The notes under the pieces were generated by a model. That model was not told the DNA's origin. It saw only the letters and a list, made by a program, of their open reading frames with translations, and ran no database searches. Position numbers and translations under genes: made by a program. From contig NC_003902.1 in assembly GCF_000007145.1 (NCBI RefSeq), positions 460,325 to 492,324 on the forward strand: a stretch of DNA of 32,000 nucleotides, given 5' to 3'. This DNA comes from Xanthomonas campestris pv. campestris str. ATCC 33913 (GTDB lineage Bacteria > Pseudomonadota > Gammaproteobacteria > Xanthomonadales > Xanthomonadaceae). Positions 1,385 to 17,499 of this stretch are shown here, piece after piece; the stretch's first letter is position 1; each line of letters opens with the position of its first letter.

Positions 1385-1483
1385 GGCGTTCGTCGACAGC
1401 GGAAGAGGGCCGCTAGCGTAGCGTGCCGGGCCCAGCGCGCCCAGCCGGCACCGACGGCCGGTGCTAGCTGGGCGCTGATGCGG

Positions 1484-2518
1484 TCAGGCCGCGTGTTCGC
1501 ACGCCGCGCCGCAGGTGATGTCCGCATGCACGGTGCCGGGGTGGTCGTGCTCGGCGGCGTCGACGGTGATCTGCATCGGGCGCAGGCCCAGCCGCTGGAA
1601 CAACCCCTGGTCGCGCTCGGTATCAGGGTTGCCGGTGGTGAGCAGCTTTTCGCCGTAGAAGATCGAGTTGGCACCGGCCAGGAAGCACAGCGCCTGCAGT
1701 TCGTCGCTCATCGCCTCGCGGCCGGCGGACAGGCGCACCATCGACTTGGGCATGGCGATGCGCGCCACCGCGATCATGCGCACGAACTCGAATGCATCCA
1801 GGGGCTCGGTGCCGTGCAATGGAGTGCCGGGAACCTGCACCAACTGGTTGATCGGCACCGAGTCCGGGTGCGCTGGCAACGTTGCCAGCGCGTGCAACAA
1901 GCCGACGCGGTGCTCACGGGTTTCGCCCATGCCGACGATGCCGCCGCAGCAGGTCTTCAAGCCCACATCGCGCACGTGCTCCAGGGTGTTCAGGCGGTCT
2001 TGGTACTGGCGGGTGTGGATGATCGAGTCGTAGTAATCCGGCGCGGTGTCCAGATTGTGGTTGTAGTAGTCCAGCCCGGCGTCCTTGAGCGCGCGCGCCT
2101 GGCCGGCGTCGAGCATGCCCAGGGTGGCGCAGGTTTCCAGGCCCATCGCCTTCACCTCGCGGATCATGGCGGCCACCTTGGGGATGTCGCGGTCCTTGGG
2201 CGAGCGCCACGCCGCACCCATGCAGAAGCGCGAGGCGCCGGCGGCCTTTGCCTGGCGGGCCTTGGCCACCACGTCTTCGGTGTCCATCAGTTTCTGTGCG
2301 CTCACCCCGGTGTCGTAGCGCTGCGCCTGCGGGCAGTAGGCGCAATCTTCCGGGCAGCCGCCGGTCTTGACCGACAGCAGCGTGGAGACCTGCACCTCGG
2401 CCGGGTCGAAGTGGGCACGGTGCACGCTGGCGGCGCGATGCAGCAGCTCGGGAAACGGCAGCGCGAACAGCGCATGCAGTTCTTTGCGATCCCAGTCATG
2501 GCGGACGACAACGGACAT
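1484..2518 (-). CDS. bioB: biotin synthase (radical SAM)
   Basis: The ORF 1484-2584 contains the radical-SAM triad [10 protein letters not shown], plus YNHNLDT and a conserved C-terminal half. I moved the start to ATG 2518 ([14 protein letters not shown]...), which matches the usual BioB N-terminus. The 22 upstream codons look non-native. Confidence 0.95.
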
Positions 2519-2567
2519 CGGGGTTTCCTGACAGTCAGCGGCTTGGAAGCCAGGCAGTCTGGTGAGC

Positions 2568-3293
2568 ATGGACGAGGCTGTCAACTTTACGCATCCGCAT
2601 TCGGTTTACAGGTGGCCACAACGGCTGCTGCGATTGCTGCTGCCATCGCTGTGCCTGGTGTGCGCGGAGTCGGGCACCGACGATTGCGACCTGTGCCCGT
2701 CCTGCCGGGCGGCGCTGCCAGACCATGGCACTGCCTGCGCGTGCTGTGCCACGCCGTTGTTTGCCGCTGCCGGGCTCCCGTTGTGCGGCCAGTGCCTGCA
2801 GCACCCGCCGCCGCTACAGCGCGCATATGCCTGCTTCACCTATCGCTGGCCGGTGGACGGGCTGCTGCGACGCTTCAAGTTCCATCAGGATCTGGCGGCC
2901 GGCCGGGTGCTGAGCGAACTGATGGCCGCGCGCTGTGCCGCCTTGCCGCGGCCACAGGCACTGGTGCCGGTGAGCCTGCACCGGCATCGGCTACGCCAGC
3001 GCGGTTACGACCAGGCGCTGGAGTTGGCCCGGCCGCTGGGCCGCGCACTGCAGCTGCCCTGCCTGCCGCTGCTGCGCCGCGTACGCGCCACCGCGCCACA
3101 GTCCGAACTGGATGCCGACGAGCGCCGACGCAATCTGCGTGATGCGTTTCTGGCGCATGGGCCGCTGCCCACCCATGTGGCGCTGGTGGACGACGTCATG
3201 ACCACGGGCGCCACCTTGCATGCAGCCGCACAGGCGCTGCGGCGCGCCGGTGTGCAGCGCGTGGACGCCTGGGTCTGCGCGCGGGTGCCGTGA
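2568..3293 (+). CDS. ComF-family protein (phosphoribosyltransferase domain, competence-protein-F-like)
   Basis: The N-terminus has Cys pairs (CLVC...CPSC...CACC...CGQC). The C-terminus has the PRTase motif [14 protein letters not shown]. The start is uncertain (GTG 2562 or ATG 2568), and the 5' end overlaps the candidate bio operator. Confidence 0.8.
2578..2611. promoter_or_regulatory. candidate BirA-type biotin operator in the bioB/comF divergent region
   Basis: An imperfect inverted repeat reads CTGTCAAC-N18-GTTTACAG. Its core TGTCAAC-N18-GTTTACA has the same half-site and spacing architecture as the TTGTAAACC-N14-GGTTTACAA consensus (recalled from memory). It lies 60-93 nt upstream of the bioB ATG. 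Confidence 0.35.
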
Positions 3294-3689
3294 GGGATGG
3301 TGGCTTGCGCGTTGTAGCGTTGCGCCGTGAGGCCTGGCCCGCAACGTTGTCGGCGACGGTCATCCAGTTGCGCCGCTATCGGTGTCATGACAACAACGCG
3401 CCGAGGCGACAGCGCGCCCGGGGATTGGCGCAGAGCGGCACATGGATGTGTCGCTGCGGCGAATCAGGCAGGATGTCTGACCGAGCCGAATAGCCGATCC
3501 CCGGGCGCGCTGTCGCAGCCCACCGAAGCCGGCGCCTGACAGGTGGAGCCATGCCGCAACCAAACCACTTTCCGCGCCCCGGCCCGCGGTTGCTGCGCGG
3601 GCGCTCCAAGGCGCACACCAGTGGCGGGCAACCTGTGTCTTCGCGGCCCCTGCGGGCTTAACGCGCGGCGCGATTAGCGCATCTACCCG

Positions 3690-4595
3690 CTAGCGCAACG
3701 CCAGCGACGCGGCGATGCCGACGAAGATCGCCAGGCCTACCCAGTTGTTATGCAGGAAGGCGCGGAAGCAGGGGCCGCGTTCGCGGTGGCGCGCGATGTG
3801 GAATTCGTAGGCCACCAGCAGCGCTGCGATGCCCAGCCCAGCCCAGTAAGCGATGCTGAGGCCGGCGCGCAAGCCCACCAGCACCAGGGCCGCGAACATC
3901 AGCGCATACAGCACGCCTTGCGCGATCAGGTCGTAACGGCCGAACAGGATGGCGGTGGACTTGCTGCCCATGCGGAGGTCGTCCTCGCGGTCGACCATGG
4001 CATACCAGGTGTCGTAGGCGGTGGCCCAGAGGATGTTGGCGGCGTATAGCAGCCAGGCCAGCAGCGGCACGCTGCCCTGCACGGCGGCGAAGCCCATCGG
4101 GATGCCCCAGCCGAACGCCATGCCCAGGTATACCTGCGGCAGATGGGTGTGGCGCTTCAGATAGGGATAGCTGGCGGCCAGAAACAGGCCGGGCACGCTC
4201 AGCGCCACGGTCAGCCAGTTGAGGCTGAGCACCAGCGCGAAGGCGACCAGCATCAACACCACGAACACCCACAGCGCCTCGCGGCCGGAGACCGCGCCGG
4301 TGGCGAGCGGACGCGACTTTGTGCGCTCTACGTGCGGATCCAGCCAGCGGTCGGCGTAGTCGTTGATCACGCAGCCGGCCGAACGGGTCAGCCAGACGCC
4401 AGCGGTGAACACGAACAAGGTCCACAACGGCGGCAGGCCCCCGGCCGCCAGCCACAGCGCCCACCAGGTGGGCCAGAGCAGCAGCAGGCTGCCGATCGGG
4501 CGGTCACCACGGACCAACTTCCAATACTGTCCCAGGCGCTCTGGCCACGTCAGCGCAGGGGCCATGGGCACGTTCTTGAAACCTTGCTTGCTCAT
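3690..4595 (-). CDS. ubiA: 4-hydroxybenzoate polyprenyltransferase
   Basis: This is a 301-aa polytopic membrane protein. It has the UbiA Asp-rich motif [23 protein letters not shown] and a second motif [13 protein letters not shown]. Confidence 0.9.
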
Positions 4596-4859
4596 GCTGC
4601 AAAGGGTAGCAGCGCCGCTTGGCCGCGGTCATGCGCTTGATGGTGTGGACGTCGCTGTTGGCTGCGGTTGGGCGCGCTTTTGAAGTGGGTTTTCAGGTGC
4701 GGGGCGCTGCAGCGCTGGAGGGATAGCCCCATCTTTGCGACCGCGCCGATAGATGAGGATGCGCTTCGGCTGGTGTGCGCGGAGGGATGCGCGCCGGGAA
4801 GCGGGCCACGGCCCAGGGATCACGCGCATGGCGCCGGTTCTGGCATAATGCGCGGCCAG

Positions 4860-4936
4860 GCGCTCGTAGCTCAGCCGGATAGAGTAGTGGCTTCCGAAGC
4901 CATTGGTCGGGGGTTCGAATCCCTCCGGGCGCACCA
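4860..4936 (+). tRNA. tRNA-Arg (anticodon CCG)
   Basis: I folded a 77-nt cloverleaf by hand. The acceptor is GCGCTCG/CGGGCGC, the D arm GCTC-AGCCGGATA-GAGT and the anticodon arm GTGGC-TTCCGAA-GCCAT (anticodon CCG). The variable loop is TGGTC, the T arm is GGGGG-TTCGAAT-CCCTC, and the CCA end is encoded. Confidence 0.93.
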
Positions 4937-4938
4937 GA
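4914..4938 (+). repeat. attL-like direct repeat (3' end of tRNA-Arg)
   Basis: TTCGAATCCCTCCGGGCGCACCAGA recurs at 17696-17720 as TCCGAATCCCTTCGGGCGCACCAGA (23/25 identical). Confidence 0.75.
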
Positions 4939-4971
4939 TGAACCCTCCGGGACATCCAAGAAAGTCCAAAA

Positions 4972-4995
4972 CCCCCGAGAAATCGGGGGTTTTTG
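4972..4995 (+). terminator. rho-independent terminator after the tRNA (island-borne)
   Basis: Stem CCCCCGA/TCGGGGG with loop GAAA, followed by TTTTTG. Confidence 0.7.
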
Positions 4996-5095
4996 TTGCC
5001 TGAGGTTTTCCTAGGTCCACCATGATCCATTGAAATCCAGGCTCGTAGGGGCATAGATGGGGGCACCAGCCCCCAGTGCGAAAGCGGATGCCCCC

Positions 5096-5492
5096 ATGCC
5101 CCTGAGTGACGCCGCAGTGCGTAACGCAACGCCCGCTGACAAGCCCGTGAGACTGTTCGACGGCGGCGGCTTGTATGTCGAGATCTCGCCGAAAGGCGCC
5201 AAGCTATGGCGATGGAAGTATCGCTTTGGCGGTAAGGAGAAGCGCTTGGCACTGGGGGTCTACCCAGAGGTCAGCCTGGCGGAGGTGCGAGCGCAGCATC
5301 TGGAAGCACGCAAAGTCCTCCGGTCCGGCATTGACCCAGGTGAGAAGAGGAGGGTCGACAGGCTGGTGCGCGTTGATCGGTCCCAGCTCAGCTTTGCAGC
5401 TGTCGCTGCAGAGCTCCTGGCCCTGCATGGCAAGAAGAATTCCGTCCTGACGATGAAGCGCAATGGCAGGATCGTCGAAAAGGACCTCAACC
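5096..5492 (+). pseudogene. P4-type tyrosine integrase, N-terminal arm-binding (DUF4102-like) fragment only
   Basis: MPLSDAAVRNATPADKPVRLFDGGGLYVEISPKGAKLWRWKYRFGGKEKRLALGVYPEVSLAEVRAQHLEARKVLRSGIDPGEKRR is the typical N-terminus of tRNA-associated island integrases. The reading frame is cut at 5492/5493 by the IS terminal repeat. No catalytic domain is present anywhere in the window. Confidence 0.85.
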
Positions 5493-6842
5493 CTGAGGTT
5501 TCCCCACATTTCCTCCTGGCAAATCAATCACTTGCGACGTAATTGCCTGGAAGAAAGTGCGCGCATGGCGCAATCTTCAAGGTGACTAAGCCAGAGAAGG
5601 TTGACGACCATGCGCGCCAGCGAAGTATTGCAGAAGTGCCTGCCCAACTCACTGTCCGGGATGCATGCGTTGCGCGAACGCGCGTTGCTGCATGCGGTCG
5701 AGGCGTTGTTGCACGGACGCAGGCTGACACTGATGGACATCGCACGTTCGTGGCCGAGCGCACTGCGGGTGCGCGCGCCGCTCAAGGCAGTTGATCGCCT
5801 GTTGAGTAATCGCAATTTGCAGGTCGAGCGATCAGTGATCGACCACGAGATGGCAGCACTGGCTGCTGCGCGGCGCGCAGCCGGTAATCGTCATCGACTG
5901 GAGCGATCTGAAGCCAGACAAATCGTGGTGTCTGCTGCGCGCAGCGGTGCCGGTGGGCGGCCGCACGCTTACCTTGCTGGACATGGTAGTGCCAGGAAAG
6001 CAGCAGGGATCGCCTGGTGCAGAAAGACGCTTCTTGCAACAACTGAGGGCACTGGTTCCGGACGATGTTCGCCCGATCCTGGTCACTGACGCCGGCTTCC
6101 GGACACCGTGGTTCCGCGCTGTATCGGCCATGGGCTGGTGTTGGGTTGGGCGACTGCGCGGGCGCACGCAAGTCAAGCCGCAGGACGTGCGGGATGAAGC
6201 AGATCAGTGGATCGACAGCCGGAAACTGCATGTGTTGGCGTCCAATCGTGCATGCGAGTTACCGCCGATGCAGGCCAATCGCAGCGATCCACTCGATTGC
6301 AGGTTGGTGATTTACGCCAAGGCACGGCAAGGGCGCAAACAGTGCAATCGCCGCTCACCCGCCAAAGTCTCGCGTGCGTCATCGAGTCTGAAGGCCGCAG
6401 CGCGCGAGCGCGAGCCTTGGCTCATCGTTGCATCCCCGCAGCTGCAGGCGCCCAGCGCAAAGCAGTTGGTCAATGTGTACGCACGACGGATGCAGATCGA
6501 GCTTGCATTTCGCGATCTGAAATCACATCGCTACGGCCAGGCGCTGGAAGACAGTTTGACCCGACGCGGCGAGCGACTGCAGATCCTGCTGCTGATCAAT
6601 ACGTTGGCTGCATTCGCCAGCTGGTTGGCGGGGCTGGGATGCGAAGCGACCGGTATCGCCCAGTGGCTGTCTCCTCGCAACAGCACACGCAAGCTTTACT
6701 CCACGCTACGCATCGGCCGAGAAGCGCTGGTCAGGCAGTGGCCGATGGAACCCGTCTCACGGGGATAGGGCGCTTGCGCGCACTGCCTGCGGCAGTACGC
6801 GGGCAGATGATGCTTACGGTGTAAAACGTGGGGATACCTTAG
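5493..6842 (+). mobile_element. IS4-family insertion sequence (IS10-like termini), 1350 bp
   Basis: The terminal inverted repeats are CTGAGGTTTCCCCACATTTCC (5493-5513) and the reverse complement of 6822-6842, CTAAGGTATCCCCACGTTTTA. They match at 16/21 positions (16 of the first 19). The element encloses a transposase with the IS4 YREK signature. Confidence 0.85.
5610..6768 (+). pseudogene. IS4-family DDE transposase, frameshifted
   Basis: The N-terminal part is in frame 3 (MRASEVLQKCLPNSLSGMHALRERALLHAVEALLHGRRLTL...RLLSNRNLQVERSVIDHEMA). The continuation is in frame 1 (HWLLRGAQPVIVIDWSDLKPDKSWCLLRAAVPVGGRTLTLLDMVVP...). The frame change lies between the frame-1 stop at 5836-5838 and about 5880. 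The Y-x2-R-x3-E-x6-K motif is YARRMQIELAFRDLK. IS4-family elements do not use programmed frameshifting. Confidence 0.8.
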
Positions 6843-7124
6843 TATCTGGACCGATTGAGGTACTTGTAACAGAGGGGTATCGGTGTGCGTGGCAGCACTG
6901 CATTCGGAAGCGGTATAGCTGTCGCGTTTCGCACGCACCTGGAGCGTGTCCAATGTCCAGCTGTTGAATGCCGGCTCGGAAGTTTGGGGTGATGCAGGAT
7001 CTTGTGCTGACACTGCGTCCTGGTTGAGCGAAGGCGCGGCGAGCAGTGCGGGCGAAGCGAGAGCAGCCGCAAGCGCGAACGCCAGGCGGGAGGGAGCGGA
7101 CGGTGTGGCCCTGGAGGGATGCAT
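6843..7124 (-). pseudogene. TonB-dependent siderophore-type receptor, N-terminal fragment (signal peptide plus start of plug)
   Basis: The minus-strand ATG is at 7124. The fragment reads MHPSRATPSAPSRLAFALAAALASPALLAAPSLNQD...TLDTLQVRAKRDSYTASECSAATHTDTPLLQVPQSVQI. The frame runs straight into the IS terminal repeat at 6842. Confidence 0.75.
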
Positions 7125-7168
7125 GGAAACTCCAACAATGAGCGGGAAGGTCGAGATGTGACTGGCCA

Positions 7169-9304
7169 TCAGAAACGATGGTCCACGGTGAACTCGACGC
7201 GCCTGTCGGCACCCCGCAGCCACTGGGTATCGGTGTAATAAGCCGTTTCGTAGAACGTCTTGTCGAAGGCATTGAAGACGCGGGCGGTCAGTCGGGTGGC
7301 TGGGCGGGCCTGCCAGGAGACCGTGACATCCGTGGTGGCATAGCCCGGAAGTTGCAACGTATTGGCAGTGTCCGCATAGCGCTTTCCGACATACCGAACA
7401 CCCGTGGCGACCGTCCAGTCTGTAGCCACCTGCCAGCTCACCCACGCATTGGCCAAGCGCTCGGCGACGTTGGGCGGCACGTTGCCATCCCGAGAGACCG
7501 CGATGACCGGCGAACCAGTGGTCTCCAGAAAATCTTCGAACTCTGCCTTCAGCACGGTGGCGTTGAGATCCAGCGACCATGCCGGCGCGAAGACCCATGC
7601 CAAGGACGCCTCCACCCCCTTGGACGTTTGTGCGCCCACCTGGACACGTCGGTCCGGGTTCAAGGGGTCGCGGCTAAGCAAACCGGTCTTGCGAATGCGA
7701 TAGGCAGCCAAGGTCCACTCGCCGCCATCAAAGCCCTGTTTGAAGCCAACTTCCACCTGCTTGCCTCTGGATAGATCAAATGCCCCGTTGTTCGGACTGA
7801 TCATTAGCAGACCACTGATCGGGTCAGACGCTTGAGAGAACTGGGCGTAAAGCGTGGACGTTGGCCGGAGTGCAAACACCGTTCCGGTACGCCAGCCGGT
7901 ATTTGAGTAAGTCTTTGAGAACGTCCGCTGCCCGCTGATCAGGTCGGTGCGCTGAACAATGGCACGGTCATGGCGGAGGCCTGCCAAGATGGACCAGCGG
8001 TCGGTCAGCGCCAAACGGTCTTCAAGGAAGAGCGAGTATTGCTCGGCGCTGTTGCGATACCGGGGGATATTCGGCGCGTCGCTAATGAACCGGCCCGGCA
8101 CCGGATTGAACAGGTCCACCGGCCCGGAACTTCCCGAGTAGGTGTTATTGGTGTGCTTGAAGTGGGCTCGGTTGGCATCTACGCCAACGGCAAAGGTGTT
8201 GTCCATGTGGCCAAGACCACCCCGCAACCGCAGCGTGGAGGTCAGACCGGTCTGGTCCTGGTTGTGCGTGATCTGCGTGTTGTCGGAGCGGTCGATCAGC
8301 CCGGTTGTCGCGTTATAGACGTAGGCCTCGGCATTGCGCCAATCGCGCTGGCTGTCGACCTGGTAAAGGCGCGTGCGCCATTCAACCGTATTGTTGGGCG
8401 TCCACACCGCGTCGAGCTGGCTCCAACGGTCTCGGAACCGGATGACGCTGTCAGAGACGTTGTAGTTTTCGTGGCGCAACGCATTCAGCTGTTGGCCGTC
8501 CACCAATGGCGTGCCGAAGTAACGCATGGGGCGTTGATAGCCTTCTGCATGCGTCAGTGTGAATTGCAGGTCCGGCCGCGCTTGCCAGAGCAATGCGCCC
8601 GAGAAGGTGGCATCACCGTTGTAGCCACGATCCACCCAGCCGCTACTGTAATTGCCACTGACATCCAGCCGGTAGGCGAGGTTGGAGCTCAACGCGCCCC
8701 CGCTGCCGACCCCCAGTCGTGCCGTGTCCTGGCTGCCCACGGTAGCTCGAAGCTCGTTTTCCACCGGGCCAAAGTGAGGCTTCTTGGGCACGATGTTGAC
8801 TACGCCCCCGATCGCGCCGTCGCCATAGATGACGGAGGCCGGGCCACGCAACACTTCGATGCGTTCGATCGACCACGTGTCAAAAGGGAACGTGACTCCC
8901 ACGCCGCCGTACTGTCGGATGCCGTCATACAGACGCATGACCGACGCACTGTCGGTAAAACCACGGCTGGATAGGGCACTCAGGCCATTGCCTGGATGAG
9001 GCATCGCGCTGATGGCACCGGCCCAGGTGATAGCATTGTTTAGGTTGGCATTGCCGCGTGCGTTCAGTTGCTCACGCAAGATAACGGTCAGGCTTGCAGG
9101 AGTATCGAGCACGCTCAGACCGAGTGCCGAACCGGTCGAACTGATGTCAGTCAATGTGCCTGCGCGATCGTCGACGACCCGGACCGTGTCGAGCGTTCGG
9201 GGCGCTGGGCCTTGTTGTGCCAAGACTCCAGTGGAATGCAGCAGGAATGGAACGAGAGCCAAGGCTAGGCGTCCCGGACGGAGGACCGAGGGAAAGGAAT
9301 GCAT
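7169..9304 (-). CDS. TonB-dependent receptor, siderophore/metallophore type
   Basis: I set the start at ATG 9304 (MHSFPSVLRPGRLALALVPFLLHSTGVLAQQ signal peptide). The TonB-box-like sequence is TLDTVRVV, and the plug motifs are SSRGF...RLYDGIR...IERIEVLRGPASVIYG. A long beta-barrel ends in the terminal aromatic residue (...FTVDHRF). Confidence 0.9.
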   Translation of the reverse strand: MHSFPSVLRPGRLALALVPFLLHSTGVLAQQGPAPRTLDTVRVVDDRAGTLTDISSTGSALGLSVLDTPASLTVILREQLNARGNANLNNAITWAGAISAMPHPGNGLSALSSRGFTDSASVMRLYDGIRQYGGVGVTFPFDTWSIERIEVLRGPASVIYGDGAIGGVVNIVPKKPHFGPVENELRATVGSQDTARLGVGSGGALSSNLAYRLDVSGNYSSGWVDRGYNGDATFSGALLWQARPDLQFTLTHAEGYQRPMRYFGTPLVDGQQLNALRHENYNVSDSVIRFRDRWSQLDAVWTPNNTVEWRTRLYQVDSQRDWRNAEAYVYNATTGLIDRSDNTQITHNQDQTGLTSTLRLRGGLGHMDNTFAVGVDANRAHFKHTNNTYSGSSGPVDLFNPVPGRFISDAPNIPRYRNSAEQYSLFLEDRLALTDRWSILAGLRHDRAIVQRTDLISGQRTFSKTYSNTGWRTGTVFALRPTSTLYAQFSQASDPISGLLMISPNNGAFDLSRGKQVEVGFKQGFDGGEWTLAAYRIRKTGLLSRDPLNPDRRVQVGAQTSKGVEASLAWVFAPAWSLDLNATVLKAEFEDFLETTGSPVIAVSRDGNVPPNVAERLANAWVSWQVATDWTVATGVRYVGKRYADTANTLQLPGYATTDVTVSWQARPATRLTARVFNAFDKTFYETAYYTDTQWLRGADRRVEFTVDHRF

Positions 9305-9360
9305 GGGTGGTTCCAGGTGGAATAGCGCCGTGGGCGCAAGCGGGCGTTGTTTGAGAACGA

Positions 9361-9765
9361 CTACGCCGCCATCGGAGGGCCACGTGGACGATGCGCGGTG
9401 CTGCTGGCGAACCGCGGGACATTCGACGCACAAACGTCACTGCCGGCTGAGGCATGAGTGGGAGCGGCACGCCTCCAGGTCCAGTCATGCGGGGTGAGAA
9501 GAAGCGCTGCCAGCAGGCAGTGCTCGCAAGCAGCGTCGTGGGGCAGGGCGTGCTTGCCTAATTGGATTTGCCCTTCGCGACTACCCAGGGCCAGCGTGGC
9601 CGGTTTGGTTGCCAGCTGGTGGCCCGTCTCGCACATGGCCTCCATGACCATCTGCTGCGGCAGCGATTCAACCCACCGGCTGACAACCGGCGCAACCACC
9701 AGCAGCAAGGCCGCCATGGCGGCCCAGCTGCGGATAGCGTGGGCAAGGAATCTTCGAAGAGCCAT
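9361..9765 (-). CDS. DUF2946-like small membrane protein (copy 1)
   Basis: The start is ATG 9765 (MALRRFLAHAIRSWAAMAALLLVVAPVVSR...). It has an N-terminal TM helix, the motif HDAACEHCLL and a C-terminal RGPP. This pattern is as I recall it for DUF2946 proteins that accompany TBDRs. It lies 56 nt upstream of the TBDR and 23 nt downstream of the SOD gene. Confidence 0.6.
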   Translation of the reverse strand: MALRRFLAHAIRSWAAMAALLLVVAPVVSRWVESLPQQMVMEAMCETGHQLATKPATLALGSREGQIQLGKHALPHDAACEHCLLAALLLTPHDWTWRRAAPTHASAGSDVCASNVPRFASSTAHRPRGPPMAA

Positions 9766-9788
9766 GGGCGTGGGCGAGGATTGGCCGG

Positions 9789-10493
9789 TCAGCGCTTGGC
9801 TGCAGCGCCAAAGCGGGCGTTGACCTCGGTCCAGTTGACCACCGACCACCACGCCTTGATGTAGTCGGCCCGCTTGTTTTGGTAATGCAGGTAATACGCG
9901 TGTTCCCACATATCCAGGGCCAGCAGTGGCGTGCCGCGGTCGGACACGACATCCATCAATGGGTTGTCCTGATTGGACGTGGTGGTGATCGCCAGTGAGC
10001 CGTCTGGTTTGACGATCAACCAGGCCCATCCCGAGCCGAAAATTTTTGTGGCCGCCTCGGAGAACTTGGTTTTGAAGGCCTCTTCGGAGCCGAACGACTG
10101 TGCCAGTTTTGCCTTGAGGGCCGGCGATATCGTTCCTCCCTGGCCTGCGGGTGCCATCAGCGTCCAGAACAGGCTGTGGTTGTAATGGCCGCCGGCATTG
10201 TTGCGGACCGCCGCGTCGTACAGAGAGATATGGGCCTGGATGTCTTCGACAGACGTGGTCGACAACGCTGGGTAGTCTTCGACCTTGTTGTTGAGGTTAT
10301 CGACGTAGGCCTTGTGATGGCGTGCGTGATGGATCTCCATCGTTTGCGTGTCGATGGCCGGTTCCAATGCATTGGTCGCGTAGGGCAGCGCCGGTAGCGA
10401 GAAGGCGACTTTAGGTGCGTCGGCTGCGACTGCAATATTTGAAAGTGCCAGCAGGGCGCTGAGGCCTAACGCTTTAATGGATCGGCAATTCAT
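9789..10493 (-). CDS. Fe/Mn-family superoxide dismutase, SodA (Mn)-type signatures, with N-terminal Sec-type signal peptide
   Basis: The start is ATG 10493, with GGAG about 11 nt upstream. The signal peptide is MNCRSIKALGLSALLALSNIAVA, followed by ADAPKV. The mature part aligns by eye with E. coli SodA from its first residues: FSLPALPYATNALEP, MEIHHARHH, NNAGGHYNHSLFW, TSNQDNPL, LDMWEHAYYLHYQNKRADYIKAWWSVVNW. Confidence 0.92.
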   Translation of the reverse strand: MNCRSIKALGLSALLALSNIAVAADAPKVAFSLPALPYATNALEPAIDTQTMEIHHARHHKAYVDNLNNKVEDYPALSTTSVEDIQAHISLYDAAVRNNAGGHYNHSLFWTLMAPAGQGGTISPALKAKLAQSFGSEEAFKTKFSEAATKIFGSGWAWLIVKPDGSLAITTTSNQDNPLMDVVSDRGTPLLALDMWEHAYYLHYQNKRADYIKAWWSVVNWTEVNARFGAAAKR

Positions 10494-10977
10494 GGTGTTT
10501 TGCTCCGATTTCAAGAAGGACGAACAGGGTGCTAGCAGGCGTTTGGCATGAAAGCACAAGCGCACGGCGGACTGTGTCGGTCCGTTGGAGTCAGGAACTC
10601 TGGTCCTCAATTAAGAGCATCTAACAAAACTCCTGCGCAGCCGCCAGGCGAGCGCGGCCGGTGCTCGGAATCCTCATGTACCACTCGTACACTGCGGTTC
10701 CTAGGCTCCTTCCGCGCCCACCTGACGGCTGTTCGCTATGTTTTGTCAGCCGCTCTAAATCGTAAGGACTGCAGTGCACATGCACTTGCACGCGTCAACC
10801 TCACAACGTGCGACGACGCTTCGCCCTTGCTCGCGCAGGAGCAAATCGTTCAAACCGGGCACTCGACGGCTCAGTCTCGTCCTAGCAGATCCGCTACACC
10901 TCAACTTGGCAGCCATACAAGCCAATAGCCGCCAGCCCAAAGCAAAGACGGAAAAGATGCCGCACCGGAACGTTGTG

Positions 10978-11466
10978 TCAGGCGAGAACGACGGAAGGGG
11001 GGCCGCGGGCACCCAAGGTGCTTGAGAGCAGCGATAGGCGCGTATTAGCGAGCCTTGCTAATCGCCCGAAGCTGCCAGGGTAGCCAGTGAGGAGCAGTAG
11101 CACTGCAATCAACAGACTGATCAAACGGGCAGCAATCACGCAGTAATCACAGTCGACGCCCATGTCATGCTCGGCATGTGGGCCGGGCATTGGGCGTGCA
11201 TTTGCCGTCTCATCGTCTGCGTCGTGATGGGGATAGACGTTGGATGAAATTGAAGCCGTCTCCAGCACGTCTACCGCATCGTGGTGATGCTGGTGGCGAG
11301 GCGTCTGCTTAAAACGCGAGCCATGCTGATGCACTACGTTGAGCGCTGAGGAGGCCGATGCTGCGGACTGCTTCAGGGCGCGACTTACCAACGGCGCAAT
11401 GAGCATCAAGAGAATGGCGAGCCATGCGCAGGCAAGCAACCAGTGGTGGCGTCGTGAACGGTGCAC
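10978..11466 (-). CDS. DUF2946-like small membrane protein, His-rich (copy 2)
   Basis: The 162-aa protein has an N-terminal TM helix (WLLACAWLAILLMLIAPLVSR). Its His/Asp-rich segment is HQHGSRFKQTPRHQHHHD...YPHHDADDE...HAEHD. It also has CDYC, a second hydrophobic segment and a C-terminal RGPP. The architecture matches 9361-9765. Confidence 0.6.
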   Translation of the reverse strand: MHRSRRHHWLLACAWLAILLMLIAPLVSRALKQSAASASSALNVVHQHGSRFKQTPRHQHHHDAVDVLETASISSNVYPHHDADDETANARPMPGPHAEHDMGVDCDYCVIAARLISLLIAVLLLLTGYPGSFGRLARLANTRLSLLSSTLGARGPPSVVLA

Positions 11467-12167
11467 ATTCCGATTCTAATGGAAGCGGCCGACGAATGGT
11501 CTGTGGGCCAAGATCGTCGAAGGGCTGCGACAAAGTGTCGCAATGTGTGTTGGAGCAACGCCTGCCGCAAGGTCTGTCTGCCTTTCGCAAAGGTTTCAGG
11601 TAGCGAATACGCCAATGCCACATGCTCCATGCGCCGAGTAACCCACGGACGAGGGCGCGATGGTGAGCGCGTGTGTTGCTAGGCTTCGCTCACCGAGCCT
11701 CTGCTCGACACGTAGCATGTAGCCAACCAGTGTTTGGCGTAGTCGTACGCGGCGTTTCGGTCAGTGAAGGCAACACCGGATATGGATTGACGATGAAGTG
11801 TGATGCCGCCGGGCTTGGAAATAGGAGTTCGGGTAGGAATTTACCGTCAGCCGGTGAGAAGTGCGCCGTTAGCAGATAATCGCCCACGTGACGAGTTGCG
11901 GTAACGCCCAAGAGCATTTTTCCTTGATGGTGCCCAGCACCGTTGGTTGTTCGAAACATCACAAAAAAAGCCGCAGCCAGGCGCTGCTTGGTGGCGGATG
12001 ATCATGGACGACAAGAGTCCAACAGGCAGTCGGTGTTAGGCGAGCTGGACTTTAGGTATTTCCCTCAGCAGCAGCGCCGGGAGAGGCGGTTGATCCGTCC
12101 CCAATATGAGGAGCGCACGTTTGCTCTCGCCGACTATTTCCAGTCGCCACTCGAAATACTGAAACAA

Positions 12168-12186
12168 ATTGTTACTATGTAACAAT
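12168..12186. promoter_or_regulatory. perfect 19-bp palindrome, candidate Fur-family (Zur-like) operator
   Basis: ATTGTTAC-TAT-GTAACAAT lies in an A/T-rich context, 22 nt upstream of the TBDR ATG at 12208. Its core TGTTA-N5-TAACA has the same spacing as the gamma-proteobacterial Zur consensus GAAATGTTATANTATAACATTTC (recalled from memory). Confidence 0.45.
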
Positions 12187-12207
12187 AATTCTTGATGGGG
12201 AGTGTGC

Positions 12208-14823
12208 ATGTTGCGTAGTCGAACTCTTGCGGTGACGGGAATGCTGTCAACGAGTCTTGCAGTGGCACTGCCAGCCTTCGCTGAAGATCGGGAAGCGAAC
12301 TCGTCTACGCTGGTAGACAAGGAATTCGAGGTCATTACGGTGGGTAGCCGCTTCGGCGGTCGCTCGATGCTGCAGTCGCCAACGCCAGTGGACCTGATTA
12401 CCAGAGAGGAGATGGAGCGCAACGGGCGCGTCGATCTGCTGCAGATGCTCAAGGTCGAAGTGCCCAGCTTCAACATCCCGCGCCCGATTGCATCGGGTGC
12501 CGGCGACTACCTCATGCCGCCGTCTTTACGGGGCCTGGGGCCGGGTGAGGTGCTGGTGCTGATCAATGGCAAGCGTCGCCACACGTCGGCAGATCTCAAC
12601 TCAAGCAATGGTGTTGGACGCGGCGATATTTCGATCGACTTCAACGCCATCCCGTCCCTGGCCTTATCGCGCGTGGAAGTCCTGCGCGATGGCGCAGCGG
12701 CGCAATATGGGTCCGATGCAATCTCCGGCGTCATCAACCTCACCTTGGACCGCTCGCTGGAGACCGTGGCGCACGCCACTTACCTTGCTACCAGCAAGGG
12801 CGACGGTCAAACGCATGAGGTGGCCGCAGCGACGGGATTCCCCATCGGCAGGGAAGGCGTCGTGCGGCTCACTGCGGCCGTGCAAGACATCGCAGCCAGC
12901 AACCGGGCGCGTCCCGACACTCGGCAACAGTATTTCGGCGCCAACGCTGCTGGTGCGCCGGTGATGCCCTCCGGCAACTATGGCTCCGGGACAGGGCTGA
13001 CCGCGCCCAATGGCAGGCTTGATCCCCTCGAAGCCGGTTTTGACCGGGACGTGTTCTTCCAGGGCACCCAGCCAAGCACCAATCGGCAGCTGTTCTACAA
13101 CTTAGTGACGCCCCTGTCTGATGCGGTGGAGTTCTACTCCTTCGGCGGCCACAGCCGCCTGGATGGGGATATCACTTACTTCTTCCGGCGTGCGGGTCAG
13201 GACGAGACGGTACGTGCCATCTATCCGGATGGCTACAGCCCGATGCTGGATACACGCATCGACAACACATCGGTTGCGCTGGGTCTGCGAGGCCATGCGC
13301 TTGCAGGATTCGGTTGGGACCTATCCACGGTCTACGGGCGCAATACGCAGGACCTGTTTTACGCCAATAGCGTCAATGTCTCGCTCGGCGCCGGTTCGCC
13401 AACACGTTTCTATCGCAGCGGCGCCGACTTTGATCAATGGACAACCAATCTCGATCTGAATCGAGAGCTCGCCCTGGGCAGCTTCAGCCCACTGCGCTTG
13501 GCATTAGGCGCAGAGCATCGCTACGAGCAGTACCGGCTGTTGTCCGGCGCCGAGGCTGGCTACATTAACGGGGGCGTGCCCATCCTGGACGGGCCCAACG
13601 CGGGAAGGCCTGCGATTCCCGGCTCACAGCCGGGCCCAAGCAATGGCCCGGACGACAACGCGCTGCTGGACCGGAACAGTCAGGCGATCTACGTGGAAGT
13701 CGAGCAATCGCCTAGCGACCGCCTGCTGCTGAGCGCTGCCGCCCGCCATGAGCGCTACTCCGATTTCGGCAATACGACGAACGTCAAAATCGCGAGTCGT
13801 TTTCAGCTGAGCGAACAATGGGCGCTACGGGGCTCGTACAACACTGGCTTCCGTGCTCCAGCGCTGGCGCAGTCTGGTTACAACGCGTCCAATACGTTGA
13901 TTCTCAATGGGGCGCAGGCGATCGTGCGTGTTGCCGCAGTGGGAACCGAGGCGGCGCAGCTGGCCGGGGCGACCGATCTCAAGCCTGAAACGTCGAACAA
14001 CATTTCGCTTGGCACGGTATTTCAGGAAGGCAACTGGTCAGCCTCACTTGATGCTTATCAGATCAAGGTCCGCGACCGCATTGCGATTTCCTCGACGTTC
14101 CAGGACCCGCACCTGACCAACTACCTTGCGGCCAATGGACAGTCGGGATTCGCGGCGATTTCGTTTTTGACCAACGCTGTGGACACCGTCACGCGTGGCA
14201 TGGATCTGGTCATCAATTATCGGCGACAATTTGAACTTGGCGGAGCACTGACCGGCACCTTTGCTGGCAATTACAACACCACTGATTTTGATCGGATTGC
14301 TGGCACGCCTGCACCAATTGCTGCGCTGGGCATCACCACGCCGCTGTTCGACCTGACCCAGCAGTTGCGGTACTCAGACAGTCAGCCTCGCGACAAGCTG
14401 ATGCTCAACCTGAACTATACGCATGGCCGCTTCTCGGCAAACCTGACAAACACCCGCTATGGCCAAGTCTCCAGCGTGGCCCTGACTGGCAAGAACGCAG
14501 CGCAGGTTGCAGTGCTCACGCCGGGCTACGACACGCGCTTGGTGCCAGCCTCGGCCACCACCTACGACATCATCCAGACCTTTTCGCCAAAGATCATCAC
14601 CGATCTGGAACTCTCAGCACAGGTGACGCCGGCCCTGCGTGTGAGCATCGGGGCGCAGAACCTGCTTGATGTGTATCCGGACGAGAATATCGCGTCCACT
14701 GCGGCCAGTGTTGCAGTGGGGACCAATGGCTCGGACAACGCAGGCACGCATCCGTATAACGCCACATCGCCGTTCGGCTTTACGGGTCGTGCGTTATTTA
14801 TGCGCGCCGGTCTTACGTTTTAA
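12208..14823 (+). CDS. TonB-dependent receptor (non-siderophore/oligomer type plug)
   Basis: I chose ATG 12208 because GGGGAG lies 5-6 nt upstream. The signal peptide is MLRSRTLAVTGMLSTSLAVALPAFA, followed by EDRE. The TonB-box-like sequence is FEVITVG. The plug reads LRGLGPGEVLVLINGKRR...VEVLRDGAAAQYGSDAISGVINL, and the C-terminus is ...RAGLTF. Confidence 0.9.
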   Translation: MLRSRTLAVTGMLSTSLAVALPAFAEDREANSSTLVDKEFEVITVGSRFGGRSMLQSPTPVDLITREEMERNGRVDLLQMLKVEVPSFNIPRPIASGAGDYLMPPSLRGLGPGEVLVLINGKRRHTSADLNSSNGVGRGDISIDFNAIPSLALSRVEVLRDGAAAQYGSDAISGVINLTLDRSLETVAHATYLATSKGDGQTHEVAAATGFPIGREGVVRLTAAVQDIAASNRARPDTRQQYFGANAAGAPVMPSGNYGSGTGLTAPNGRLDPLEAGFDRDVFFQGTQPSTNRQLFYNLVTPLSDAVEFYSFGGHSRLDGDITYFFRRAGQDETVRAIYPDGYSPMLDTRIDNTSVALGLRGHALAGFGWDLSTVYGRNTQDLFYANSVNVSLGAGSPTRFYRSGADFDQWTTNLDLNRELALGSFSPLRLALGAEHRYEQYRLLSGAEAGYINGGVPILDGPNAGRPAIPGSQPGPSNGPDDNALLDRNSQAIYVEVEQSPSDRLLLSAAARHERYSDFGNTTNVKIASRFQLSEQWALRGSYNTGFRAPALAQSGYNASNTLILNGAQAIVRVAAVGTEAAQLAGATDLKPETSNNISLGTVFQEGNWSASLDAYQIKVRDRIAISSTFQDPHLTNYLAANGQSGFAAISFLTNAVDTVTRGMDLVINYRRQFELGGALTGTFAGNYNTTDFDRIAGTPAPIAALGITTPLFDLTQQLRYSDSQPRDKLMLNLNYTHGRFSANLTNTRYGQVSSVALTGKNAAQVAVLTPGYDTRLVPASATTYDIIQTFSPKIITDLELSAQVTPALRVSIGAQNLLDVYPDENIASTAASVAVGTNGSDNAGTHPYNATSPFGFTGRALFMRAGLTF

Positions 14824-14873
14824 GCACACGACGACGATGCTTGAAGCTCCACACCTGACAGAGGACGACTTGA

Positions 14874-16169
14874 ATGGGCAATCGCAGAGGATTTTTGAAG
14901 ATGTCCGCTTCGCTGGCTGCCGCGCCCCTGATTCCTGAGTCGTCTGCTGTGAGCAATGAACTAGACATTCCTGTTTCCAACAAACGCCCGCATGAGCTTG
15001 CACGCGACGAAGCCCACTGGCGCGCGGTAGGTAGACTCTATTCAATCCAAGAGGAAATCATCAACCTTGAGCACGGCTATTGGGGACAGATGTCCATCCC
15101 AGTAGAGCAGGCGTTGGCTCGCCACACGCACAGAGTCAATCGCGAATTGTCGTGGTATGCACGCCGTGAGTACGATCGCGATTTTCTGAAAGCGCGGGCG
15201 GCAGTTGCCGATGCTCTCGGTGTCAGCGTCGAGGAGCTGATGCTCACCCGCAACGCGACTGAGTCGTTCGTCAATCTGATCACCCAGTATGACGAATTGA
15301 GTTCCGGTAACGCGATCCTGTGGGCAGATGCCGACTACCCCGAGTTCAAGCGCATGATGTCCTGGCTCGCAGAGTCGCGGCAGGTAAGGGGAACGATGCT
15401 GAGTCTCCCGGCTGCGGGAACCGATGAGGATTACATAAGGATCTATCGAGAAGCCTTTGATGCGCTTCCGGATCTCAAGCTGATGTTGCTTACTCATGTC
15501 AGCAATCAACACGGTCTAGTGCTGCCAGTGCGAGAGATCGCGGCTATTGCCAAGTGCCGCGGCATCCACGTCATTTGCGATTGCGCACAATCCTGGGGGT
15601 TGCTCGACTTCACCCTTGACGACTTGAACGTTGACTGGGCTGTCTTCAATCTCCACAAGTGGATCGGCTCGCCGGTAGGTGTCGGGGCCCTTTACATGCG
15701 GCACGGAACACTGGTGCCTGTGAGGCCATTTCCAGGAGAGGACAGCAGTGATACGGATGTGGCCAATCGCGTGCACTTGGCAACATCTGACTTCGCTTCA
15801 TTTCTTACTGTGCCTGATGCTCTCGCTTTTCACCGCGCTATTGGCGGCGCAAATAAACAAGCGCGGCTGAACTACCTCCGCGAAGCATGGGTCGCCAGCC
15901 TTGAAGGGTCGTCGGCGGTTGAGGTATTAGGCGCGACCGGATCTAAAAACGCATCGGGAATGGGGGCATTCCGCCTGCGCGGACAGACGTCGAAGGTGCA
16001 AGTGAGTGCACTCCAGACTCGCCTTGAGACAGAATTCCGCATCTTTACAGTGGTTCGAAACGATCTTGCTAGCGGAGCCTGTATCCGGGTAACTCCACAG
16101 GTATTTACTCCGCTTGAGCATGTGCAGGCGCTTGCTGACGCGATCGTTGAGATTTCGGTTACCGGCTAA
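14874..16169 (+). CDS. class-V aminotransferase-fold PLP-dependent enzyme with twin-arginine (Tat) signal
   Basis: The N-terminus MGNRRGFLKMSASLAAAPLIP matches the Tat consensus S/T-R-R-x-F-L-K almost perfectly. The class-V fold is supported by the PLP-lysine context VFNLHKWIGSPVGVG and by overall similarity to isopenicillin-N-epimerase/cysteine-desulfurase-like proteins. GAGGA lies 8 nt upstream, and the TBDR stop is 50 nt away. Confidence 0.85.
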   Translation: MGNRRGFLKMSASLAAAPLIPESSAVSNELDIPVSNKRPHELARDEAHWRAVGRLYSIQEEIINLEHGYWGQMSIPVEQALARHTHRVNRELSWYARREYDRDFLKARAAVADALGVSVEELMLTRNATESFVNLITQYDELSSGNAILWADADYPEFKRMMSWLAESRQVRGTMLSLPAAGTDEDYIRIYREAFDALPDLKLMLLTHVSNQHGLVLPVREIAAIAKCRGIHVICDCAQSWGLLDFTLDDLNVDWAVFNLHKWIGSPVGVGALYMRHGTLVPVRPFPGEDSSDTDVANRVHLATSDFASFLTVPDALAFHRAIGGANKQARLNYLREAWVASLEGSSAVEVLGATGSKNASGMGAFRLRGQTSKVQVSALQTRLETEFRIFTVVRNDLASGACIRVTPQVFTPLEHVQALADAIVEISVTG

Positions 16170-16327
16170 GTGAAGCCGGCTTGACCGAATTTGCTGAAAT
16201 GTGTCCGACAGCTGGCCTCTGCTCAGCAATGTCCGCTTGGTAAGGGCGGCACCGTGGGCCGACGTCCCCCCAATTTTGAGTAGCGCCTCAGTTTGGAGTC
16301 CAATTCCCTACCCCGAGGAGATTGGAC

Positions 16328-16591
16328 GTGAAGAAACGTTTTACTGACGAGCAGGTCATCGGCTTTCTGCGCGAAGCCGAAAGCGGCGTCGCCATCAAGG
16401 ACCTGTGCCGGCGGCATGGCTTCAGCGAGGCCTCGTACTACCTGTGGCGCAGCAAGTTCGGTGGGATGAGCGTGCCCGATGCCAAGCGGCTCAAGGACCT
16501 CGAGTCCGAGAACGCGCGGCTGAAGAAGTTGCTGGCCGAGCAGTTGTTCGAGAACGACCTGATCAAGGATGCACTGCGAAAAAAGTGGTGA
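16328..16591 (+). CDS. IS3-family transposase OrfA (HTH)
   Basis: (M)KKRFTDEQVIGFLREAESGVAIKDLCRRHGFSEASYYLWRSKFGGMSVPDAKRLKDLESENARLKKLLAEQ is IS407-like. I prefer the GTG 16328 start because GAGGAG lies 7 nt upstream. The ORF track starts at TTG 16322. Confidence 0.85.
   Translation: MKKRFTDEQVIGFLREAESGVAIKDLCRRHGFSEASYYLWRSKFGGMSVPDAKRLKDLESENARLKKLLAEQLFENDLIKDALRKKW
16579..16585 (+). promoter_or_regulatory. programmed -1 ribosomal frameshift heptamer A AAA AAG
   Basis: In the orfA zero frame the sequence is CGA AAA AAG TGG TGA. The heptamer AAAAAAG lies two codons before the orfA stop, which is the classic IS3-family arrangement. Confidence 0.8.
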
Positions 16592-17430
16592 GCGCACCGG
16601 CGCGTCGGACGCTGGTGCGCGAATGGATCGGGCGTGGTGCCAGCGAGCGTCGTGCGTTGGCAGTGATCGGCATGAGCGCCAGTGCACTGCGGTATTGCCC
16701 GCGCGAAGATCGCAATGGCGAACTGCGCGAACGCATCTGTGCGTTGGCACATCGCCATCGCCGCTATGGCGTGGGAATGATCTATCTCAAATTGCGGCAA
16801 GAAGGGCGCATCGTGAACTACAAGCGTGTGGAACGGTTGTACCGCGAGCAGCAGCTGCAAGTGCGCCGCCGCAAGCGCAAGAAGGTCCCAATAGGCGAGC
16901 GTCAACCGCTGCTGCGGCCATCGCAGGCCAACCAGGTGTGGTCGATGGACTTTGTGTTCGACCGCACCGCCGAAGGCCGGGTGATCAAGTGTCTGGTGAT
17001 CGTGGACGATGCAACCCACGAAGTGGTCGCCATCGAGGTGGAGCGCGCGATCTCCGGGCACGGGGTGACGCGCGTGCTGGACCGACTGGCGCACAGTCGC
17101 GGTTTGCCGAAGGTGATCCGCACTGACAACGGCAAGGAGTTTTGCGGTAAGGCGATGGTCGCCTGGGCGCATGCCCGTAATGTGCAACTACTGCTCATCC
17201 AGCCAGGCAAACCGAACCAGAACGCCTACGTCGAATCCTTCAACGGCCGACTGCGCGACGAATGCCTCAACGAGCACTGGTTCCCGACGTTACTGCACGC
17301 GCGCACCGAAATCGAACGCTGGCGACGCGAATACCACGAGGACCGACCCAAGAAAGCAATCGGCGGCATGACGCCGGCTGCGTATGCCCAACATCTGGCA
17401 AACACCGATATCATCAACCCCGGACTCTAA
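16579..17430 (+). CDS. IS3-family transposase OrfB (DDE integrase domain), expressed as an OrfAB fusion by -1 frameshift
   Basis: The frame is -1 relative to orfA. After the slip it reads KKVVSAPARRTLVREWIG...WSMDFVFD...IRTDNGKEF...NAYVESFNGRLRDECLN, a typical rve/DDE domain. Confidence 0.85.
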   Translation, partial: KKVVSAPARRTLVREWIGRGASERRALAVIGMSASALRYCPREDRNGELRERICALAHRHRRYGVGMIYLKLRQEGRIVNYKRVERLYREQQLQVRRRKRKKVPIGERQPLLRPSQANQVWSMDFVFDRTAEGRVIKCLVIVDDATHEVVAIEVERAISGHGVTRVLDRLAHSRGLPKVIRTDNGKEFCGKAMVAWAHARNVQLLLIQPGKPNQNAYVESFNGRLRDECLNEHWFPTLLHARTEIERWRREYHEDRPKKAIGGMTPAAYAQHLANTDIINPGL

Positions 17431-17499
17431 ACCAGGCCGCTACTCAGGGCGGGGGGACGTCGGGACGCAGCCGACGCGGAGCATCAGTCATTAGGGCTT

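Follow-up and report, generated by a model that had tools for sequence, protein, structure and literature searches.

Few cases of pyridoxal phosphate (PLP) chemistry are known from the periplasm. Broad-spectrum racemases make D-amino acids there, and PvdN and PtaA take part in siderophore tailoring. The first of these two, PvdN, is a class-V-fold enzyme that requires bound PLP for its export by twin-arginine translocation (Tat) and turns the gamma-linked glutamate in pyoverdine into succinamide (PMC6206403). PtaA of Pseudomonas fluorescens is a Tat-exported periplasmic transaminase, described as a "normal" PLP-containing enzyme; it is also found in species without pyoverdine, and other periplasmic roles have been proposed (PMC6206403). 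The present study concerns a gene pair in a 32,000-nucleotide (nt) stretch of Xanthomonas campestris pv. campestris ATCC 33913 (NC_003902.1, positions 460,325 to 492,324), termed the window, in which a gene for a TonB-dependent receptor (TBDR) is followed on the same strand by a gene for a class-V PLP enzyme with a predicted Tat signal. Receptors paired with periplasmic enzymes are exemplified by PfeA/PfeE and IroN/IroE, where the enzymes are ferric-enterobactin esterases, and we know of no receptor-linked periplasmic processing enzyme that is PLP dependent. In the carbohydrate-utilization TBDR loci of Xanthomonas, the receptor gene likewise lies beside a processing-enzyme gene, and X. campestris pv. 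campestris has 72 TBDRs (PMC1790865).

The reading that we favor, with somewhat better than even confidence, is that the pair forms an import-and-process module; its Tat export and receptor coupling are held more firmly than its chemistry and regulator. The original prediction for this locus, made from the sequence alone, had proposed a Tat-exported class-V enzyme linked to the upstream receptor and had added that no characterized system of this kind could be named. The first two parts of that interpretation were supported. The last was not, since PvdN and PtaA are both Tat-exported periplasmic PLP enzymes (PMC6206403), and PvdN was the top structural match. Searches of the literature on this enzyme family or on receptor-PLP modules returned only the PvdN and PtaA work, and the Xanthomonas TBDR survey makes no mention of the window locus (PMC1790865).

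A family-wide twin-arginine motif

The product of the downstream gene begins MGNRRGFLKMSASLAAAPLIP (N-terminus MGNRRGFLK) and matched Aminotran_5 (PF00266) with 92.1 bits against a cut-off of 21.5. Its Tat motif consists of NRRGFLK plus the hydrophobic stretch MSASLAAAPLIP, which together scored 22.8 bits for TAT_signal (PF10518; cut-off, 22.7) and 23.2 bits for TIGR01409 (cut-off, 16.7). The receptor stop codon at 14821 to 14823, the enzyme start at ATG 14874, the GAGGA, the 50-nt gap, and the NLHKW motif had all been predicted exactly, as judged from the table of open reading frames (ORFs) and the raw sequence. The class-V fold with a near-consensus twin-arginine signal, also predicted, was borne out by the Aminotran_5 search and by the family-wide presence of the Arg-Arg (RR) pair.

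A protein search over 5.8 billion proteins returned at least 1,892 relatives at an E value of ≤1e-5 among 8,000 candidates scored. Identity to the window enzyme was 65 to 74% for the Xanthomonas and Pseudoxanthomonas copies and 55 to 65% for those of Alteromonas and Pseudoalteromonas, with the window allele forming a deep lineage relative to the other Xanthomonas/Pseudoxanthomonas copies. The RR pair preceded the mature domain in 109 of the 120 best homologues, and the remaining 11 were gene calls beginning inside the signal peptide; hence RR was present in 109/109 full-length close homologues. A HMMER scan of 1.84 billion cluster representatives (50% clustering) yielded 156 clusters at an E value of ≤1e-30. 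Among the 150 best matches, RR was found in 82 of 103 full-length representatives (25 to 50% identity), and several more had KR or RK in an SRRxFLK-like context, so that ∼80 to 90% of relatives down to 25% identity carried RR or a KR/RK variant. Some of these distant representatives look like Bacteroidota proteins.

The RR pair, the hydrophobic h-region, and a disordered linker of ∼35 residues were kept in all full-length homologues across wide divergence. This family-wide conservation indicates that the Tat signal is an ancient, defining property of a broad class-V group and no accident of the window gene. The enzyme is very probably periplasmic, and it would be exported by TatABC in a folded, cofactor-loaded state. 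The data also suggest that exported class-V PLP enzymes make up a much larger superfamily, with PvdN perhaps as one of its branches.

Association with TonB-dependent receptors

Gene neighborhoods were compared at 80 loci from species-representative genomes, drawn from at least 596 species genomes with a relative, with a few extra loci added by exact-protein look-up. ORFs were called, neighbors were clustered, and recurrent clusters were identified with Pfam; ORF calling was crude in GC-rich genomes, and two loci were corrected by hand. The commonest recurrent neighbor of the PLP enzyme family was a TBDR. It occupied 21 of 162 slots (13%) at distance 1 but only 7 of 704 (1.0%) at distances 2 to 11 of the same loci (Fisher odds ratio, 14.8; p = 6e-11, without correction for kinship). 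Large neighbors missed by the receptor profile were checked individually, and all but one were unrelated proteins, indicating that the receptor count was not inflated.

The receptor-linked enzymes were spread over at least six clades of a neighbor-joining tree and involved at least three receptor types in four gene arrangements. An upstream codirectional TBDR was found in X. campestris, Xanthomonas pisi, and Alteromonas sp. C1M14 (spacers of 37 to 52 nt) and in Stenotrophomonas maltophilia and S. lactitubi, where stop and start codons overlap by 1 nt (TGATG). Pseudocolwellia also has an upstream codirectional TBDR, of a third type (1,081 residues). At eight marine gammaproteobacterial loci, the TBDR (∼810 residues) is upstream and divergent; at four Alteromonadaceae loci, a TBDR of a different type (783 residues) is downstream and codirectional; and in Pseudoalteromonas nigrifaciens the TBDR is convergent. 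Alteromonas C1M14 and P. nigrifaciens both have a receptor of the window type next to the enzyme (receptor identity, 45 and 47%; enzyme identity, 65 and 61%, respectively), so that this pair is kept over three bacterial orders, in unrelated surrounding genes. The functional link to the upstream receptor that had been predicted is thus backed by comparative genomics, and the proposed survey of other genomes, set as the test of the pairing, found it to recur in Xanthomonas, Stenotrophomonas, Alteromonas, Pseudoalteromonas, and many marine gammaproteobacteria. On this comparative evidence, functional coupling of the enzyme to the receptor is likely.

Other neighbors of the pair were lineage specific. 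Downstream of it in X. campestris (three loci) and X. pisi are a 566-residue ATP-binding cassette (ABC) transporter, a 52-residue ORF, Transglut_core3, and Asn_synthase, a set that looks like a lasso-peptide (A/B/C/D) cluster and spans about 9383 to 15289 of the X. campestris loci. X. codiaei likewise has an ABC_membrane+ABC_tran gene after the enzyme, with a putative lasso-peptide set a few kilobases further on. The exporter and lasso-peptide genes were set aside as genus-level synteny, since neither the window nor any non-Xanthomonas locus has them. An ABC-2/DUF3526 transporter was rejected as a third conserved partner, since the permeases of Pseudoalteromonas and X. campestris are only 22% identical; nothing similar was present in the window or the remaining loci.

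Active site and placement in the class-V fold

In a 29-member family alignment (61% mean column identity), the invariant residues included R4 and R5 of the twin-arginine motif, Y155, H208, D236, Q239, K262, and R405. Three of these, K262 (NLHKW), D236 (CDCAQ; contacting the pyridine nitrogen), and R405 (IRVTPQ), are residues of the PLP fold and align with motifs of SufS and C-DES; in the HMMER alignments, R405 falls on the C-DES motif CIRACC. We take the R405 position to be the alpha-carboxylate-binding Arg of the class-V fold, and its conservation implies that the free end of an alpha-amino acid is part of the substrate. Y155, in the motif DYP, aligns with a His in SufS (EHH), a His in C-DES (EHP), and the active-site Tyr134 of Egt2; according to its title, PDB entry 5v12 is of the Egt2 Y134F mutant, in which a sulfenic acid intermediate is trapped. 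The enzyme motif NLEHGYWG also matches NLNHGSFG of Egt2, as a resemblance only. No catalytic Cys of the SufS loop was conserved: the invariant columns between the two C-terminal arginines were F391, T392, V393, R395, G401, and R405, and the sole invariant Cys of the family alignment was C235, beside D236.

An AlphaFold2 model built on the same alignment had a mean predicted local distance difference test score of 90.2, with a folded domain from about residue 38 and with residues 1 to 30 disordered, in keeping with their being a signal peptide and linker. The top Foldseek match in the PDB was PvdN (5i90; E = 1.8e-25; target-normalized template modeling [TM] score, 0.85; 19% identity), and SufS, Nfs2, and Egt2 followed close behind, the TM scores of the set, PvdN included, ranging from 0.75 to 0.85. 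By full-length comparison of the family profile with PDB sequences, the cystine C-S lyase C-DES (97.6 bits) and the C-S lyase Egt2 (82.5 bits) were the best matches, and PvdN scored 59 bits.

None of the specific protein models fitted. The SufS model TIGR01979 gave 85.5 bits against a cut-off of 475, the IscS, NifS, and CsdA models were also far under their cut-offs, the EgtE model TIGR04343 gave 65.6 bits against 400, and no transaminase-family NCBIfam model was above cut-off. The PvdN model NF051467 gave 74 bits against 650, though the alignment was full length (residues 1 to 419 to positions 1 to 416 of 425). Identity as a cysteine desulfurase was rejected, given the lack of a SufS-type Cys and the low scores of all desulfurase models, and orthology to PvdN was rejected on its score and the lack of a pvd or nonribosomal peptide synthetase (NRPS) context. 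Public annotations of the relatives read "class V-fold PLP-dependent enzyme," "penicillin epimerase," or "selenocysteine lyase/cysteine desulfurase," and the CefD-like (epimerase) name was unsupported by any model tested. By these comparisons, the enzyme most resembles the cysteine-independent lyase/epimerase branch of the class-V fold.

Secreted RidA partners and candidate chemistry

The second commonest neighbor was a secreted Rid-family protein of 175 residues, encoded directly downstream on the same strand in 10 loci of five genera (Glaciecola, Psychrosphaera, Pseudocolwellia, Paraglaciecola, and Alteromonas) whose enzymes belong to one clade. It lies at about 8340 to 8930 of each locus and belongs to the YjgF/RidA superfamily (PF14588, 6e-20; PF01042, 5.5e-8). 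Every copy has an N-terminal signal peptide, of the lipoprotein type in some, and retains an Arg at the position aligned with E. coli RidA R105. We know of no described periplasmic RidA.

RidA proteins hydrolyze the 2-aminoacrylate and imines that PLP enzymes produce (PMC5636819, PMC12172467). A secreted RidA behind a Tat-exported PLP enzyme suggests a periplasmic reaction that releases an enamine or imine. The simplest candidate would be beta-elimination by a C-S lyase-like enzyme, which fits the likeness to C-DES and Egt2. The RidA clue, coming from one clade and so from a single evolutionary event, is suggestive only; lyase-type chemistry as such is put forward tentatively, at rather less than even confidence.

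In Pseudocolwellia (two loci, positions 1 to 8900), two tryptophan-halogenase-like genes are followed by the 1,081-residue TBDR, the Tat-signal PLP enzyme, and the secreted RidA, which makes this the fullest candidate pathway among the loci. A beta-lactamase-family neighbor (PF00144) occurs at two Aliiglaciecola loci, and others have a GntP or major facilitator superfamily (MFS) permease. None of the lineage-specific neighbors (MocR, halogenase-like, PF00144, GntP, and MFS) indicates a particular substrate.

Gene junction and candidate operator

The Shine-Dalgarno sequence of the enzyme gene, GAGGA at 14861 to 14865, is 8 nt upstream of its ATG. The spacer before the gene contained no promoter-like or terminator-like site, and its RNA folding was unremarkable (z = −0.38). 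The lack of a terminator and of unusual RNA structure fits co-transcription without proving it; as far as the sequence of the junction allows, the two genes are probably co-transcribed.

Twenty-two nucleotides upstream of the receptor ATG lies a perfect AT-rich palindrome (Table 1), which probably overlaps the −10 region. A 20-nt block here was 100% identical in X. pisi, where the flanking intergenic DNA was only ∼50% identical, and the X. campestris counterpart at the same place is TTGTTACTATATAACAA; the site is kept in three Xanthomonas species. Upstream of the receptor in Alteromonas C1M14 are ACGTTATAACAT and other palindromes. The window palindrome is read as a conserved operator. In the form TGTTACTATGTAACA, it agrees at 12 of 15 positions with the Zur-box core TGTtATAaagTAaCA footprinted in X. 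campestris (PMC2490734). Zur is one candidate regulator of this site, with a probability well below even. If true, it would revive the metal role (release from a metallophore) that the original prediction had proposed beside the processing of a plant compound; the palindrome is the only hint toward a metal.

At five distantly related marine loci with divergent receptors, a different motif, (T)TGTCATAAA, is common to the region upstream of the PLP gene and could be a promoter or operator element. In two of the three Stenotrophomonas loci with overlapping genes, a PLP-sensing regulator of the MocR type, with GntR and aminotransferase domains, adjoins the pair on the opposite strand; the closest model was EhuR (333 bits, below cut-off). 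From the marine motif and the MocR-type regulator, it follows that regulation is not uniform over the family. A divergent small RNA in the upstream region was rejected, since the region showed no structural signal (z = −0.24) and its minus-strand terminator-like site at 11973 to 11987 was not conserved in X. pisi.

The receptor gene and the wider window

The receptor ORF opens with GTG at 12202, and in the ORF table and raw sequence the likely start is ATG 12208, with GGGGAG upstream; the stop codon is TAA. The protein has the plug and barrel domains, a predicted signal peptide (MLRS...PAFA), and the C-terminal aromatic residue (...GLTF) that mark a TBDR with its 22-strand barrel. No NCBIfam equivalog model reached its cut-off, and the score for the TonB-dependent siderophore receptor model TIGR01783 was 45.9 bits against 223.5. 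Other clues to its specificity were sought. Matches to solved structures were confined to the plug domain, and no riboswitch was found upstream of the gene in Rfam, either at gathering thresholds or at an E value of ≤1.

Most of the receptor gene is a tract nearly identical to X. campestris CP058243 (Table 1), on either side of which identity is 60 to 80%. At the protein level, identity to that strain was 97.9% for the receptor, 72.2% for the PLP enzyme, 83.8% for a superoxide dismutase (SOD), and 86.4% for another TBDR of the window. The PLP allele of the window is itself at ∼72 to 74% identity to every other Xanthomonas or Pseudoxanthomonas copy. The tract is a product of recent recombination or gene conversion that replaced the receptor allele alone.

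TABLE 1 Positions of features of the receptor-enzyme locus within the window
Feature	Position	Strand	Basis or remark
Perfect AT-rich palindrome ATTGTTAC-TAT-GTAACAAT, candidate operator	12168..12186		Chance expectation 0.00 in 64% G+C window
TBDR gene	12208..14823	+	Pfam Plug 1.3e-19 and TonB_dep_Rec_b-barrel 8.3e-39
Predicted Sec signal peptide of TBDR, MLRSRTLAVTGMLSTSLAVALPAFA	12208..12282	+	Translation
Recent recombination tract, inside the TBDR gene only	12431..14780		10 mismatches in 2,350 nt (99.6%) versus X. campestris CP058243
Intergenic spacer, 50 nt	14824..14873	+	Read directly
Gene for 431-residue Tat-signal class-V-fold PLP enzyme	14874..16169	+	Aminotran_5 4.7e-26
Predicted twin-arginine signal peptide, residues 1 to ∼25	14874..14948	+	TAT_signal and TIGR01409 matches; RR codons 14883..14888
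NLHKW motif, K262 the predicted Schiff-base lysine	15648..15662	+	Translation; invariant in 29-member alignment; aligns with HK of SufS and C-DES
IS3-family insertion sequence	16277..17446	+	HTH_Tnp_1 and rve domains; 25-nt terminal inverted repeats

The IS3-family element, with orfA at 16322 to 16591 and an orfB frame that ends at 17430, starts 108 nt past the stop codon of the PLP gene. In blastn, the window resembles X. campestris and X. pisi up to about 16145, and synteny with other Xanthomonas ends at the element. On the other side of the pair, a divergent gene set on the minus strand (7169 to 11466) is syntenic with X. campestris. It comprises a DUF2946 protein (10978 to 11466), a signal-peptide-bearing Mn-type SOD (about 9789 to 10496), and a siderophore-type TBDR (7169 to 9304) that passes the TIGR01783 cut-off of 223.5 with 236.9 bits; the set could be an operon for metal limitation. 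At 10676 to 10751 (+), opposite in strand to the SOD and DUF2946 genes that enclose it, is a full-length match (91.2 bits) to sX9 (RF02228), a small RNA of Xanthomonas. A further palindrome, TGCGACA-AAG-TGTCGCA, occupies 11526 to 11542, 60 to 76 nt upstream of the start codon for DUF2946. Its only flag was as a terminator-like site, and it may be another operator of the divergent intergenic region. A tRNA gene occupies 4860 to 4933 and a second transposase ORF (DDE_Tnp_1) 5947 to 6768, so that the TBDR-rich segment from 7 to 16 kb is bracketed by insertion sequences.

Discussion

In the proposed import-and-process module, the receptor would carry a scarce or bulky compound across the outer membrane. 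The enzyme, folded and loaded with PLP in the cytoplasm, would be exported via the Tat pathway and, once in the periplasm, attack the imported compound at a free alpha-amino-acid moiety. The likeliest chemistry would be beta-elimination of the C-S lyase type, or another reaction releasing an imine or enamine, and not cysteine desulfuration. The pair would be transcribed, probably together, from a promoter under the palindromic operator, which is possibly a Zur box.

Several observations weigh against this proposal. About three-quarters of the family loci have no adjacent TBDR, including those of the close relatives X. floridensis and Pseudoxanthomonas. The receptor allele was swapped alone, which indicates that the two genes need not co-evolve tightly. 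The window has no inner-membrane transporter. The RidA partner is limited to one clade, and so counts as one evolutionary event, and is absent from the window. As to the reaction, epimerase (CefD-like) and PvdN-like oxidative decarboxylase chemistry are possible alternatives.

The likeliest alternative is that the two genes are neighbors without a common substrate, the enzyme being a general periplasmic PLP enzyme (acting, for example, on cystine/cysteine or D-amino acids) and the adjacency reflecting co-regulation or a receptor-rich genome. The majority of family members without an adjacent receptor, the independent exchange of the receptor allele, and the abundance of TBDRs in the host genomes (Xanthomonas, Alteromonas) would all be expected if this were so. 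The TBDR excess, however, is 13-fold and confined to the adjacent position, the orthologous pair persists across orders despite inversions, and the genes overlap by 1 nt in Stenotrophomonas. Adjacency without a shared substrate is considered unlikely.

Less probable still is a role like that of PvdN, in which the enzyme would modify a self-made siderophore, metallophore, or peptide before its export, with the receptor serving as the re-uptake route. PvdN is the best structural match, its model aligns over the full length of the enzyme, signal included, and an ABC transporter and putative lasso-peptide genes lie downstream in X. campestris, X. pisi, and X. codiaei. The score for that model was nevertheless far below its cut-off, no pvdM, pvdO, or NRPS genes were present, in Alteromonas C1M14, Pseudoalteromonas, Stenotrophomonas, and the marine loci the pair is unaccompanied by genes for biosynthesis, and in the window the genes are followed by the IS3 element, with no biosynthetic genes downstream. 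Finally, it is highly improbable that the RR pair is nonfunctional and the protein an ordinary cytoplasmic cysteine desulfurase or isopenicillin-N-epimerase-like enzyme, as the source annotations and the TAT_signal score barely above cut-off might be taken to imply, since the entire signal and linker architecture is conserved in every full-length homologue, the SufS Cys is lacking, desulfurase models score far below their cut-offs, and the downstream RidA partners carry signal peptides too.

The Tat-exported periplasmic PLP enzymes PvdN and PtaA, and the logic of a receptor gene beside a processing-enzyme gene, were already known. What is new, as far as the literature searches show, is a large class-V family with a Tat signal that stands apart from PvdN, the statistical association of this family with TonB-dependent uptake in place of biosynthesis, and the secreted RidA partner. 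The import-and-process module might, at slightly below even confidence, represent the first recognized case of a periplasmic PLP enzyme employed in catabolism or acquisition, with Tat-exported lyases of a widespread family cleaving or remodeling the imported amino-acid-bearing compound, a dedicated periplasmic RidA detoxifying the enamine or imine products in some lineages, and the Zur (zinc-starvation) response of Xanthomonas possibly involved. If so, periplasmic PLP chemistry would be a common nutrient- or metal-processing strategy in plant-associated and marine gammaproteobacteria, the pairing would give a handle on the substrates of the orphan TBDRs that are numerous in Xanthomonas and Alteromonadales, and secreted RidA proteins would have a first rationale. 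The names "penicillin epimerase" and "cysteine desulfurase" are misleading for this family.

Among the known systems, PvdN of Pseudomonas (5i90/5hh9; NF051467) shares the class-V fold and the N-terminal twin-arginine signal; it is exported in the folded state with PLP, and its periplasmic target is a free alpha-amino-acid moiety attached to a larger molecule (PMC6206403). It differs in its low sequence identity, in being outscored by the C-S lyases in profile comparison, and in serving biosynthesis, whereas the window enzyme is linked to an uptake receptor and lacks a pvdMNO/NRPS context. No pvd or NRPS genes were found in the window or the 80 related loci; the window neighbors are the TBDR, the IS3 element, and the divergent DUF2946/SOD/TBDR set. 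PtaA is, as is predicted for the window enzyme, a Tat-exported periplasmic PLP enzyme and, by its description, differs in being a transaminase. The cystine lyase C-DES (1elq) and the hercynylcysteine sulfoxide lyase Egt2/EgtE (5uts) are the best profile matches and work without a SufS-type Cys, and a beta-elimination of their kind would explain the RidA; Egt2 in addition has Tyr134 and NLNHGSFG where the window enzyme has Y155 and NLEHGYWG. Both are cytoplasmic and without a signal peptide, and C-DES has a His in place of the family Tyr. SufS, IscS, CsdA, and CefD share the fold and the PLP-binding residues but are also cytoplasmic. The PfeA/PfeE, IroN/IroE, and carbohydrate-utilization systems differ in that their enzymes are hydrolases, but in each of them, as is proposed for the window pair, a TBDR gene adjoins the gene for a periplasmic enzyme that modifies the import.

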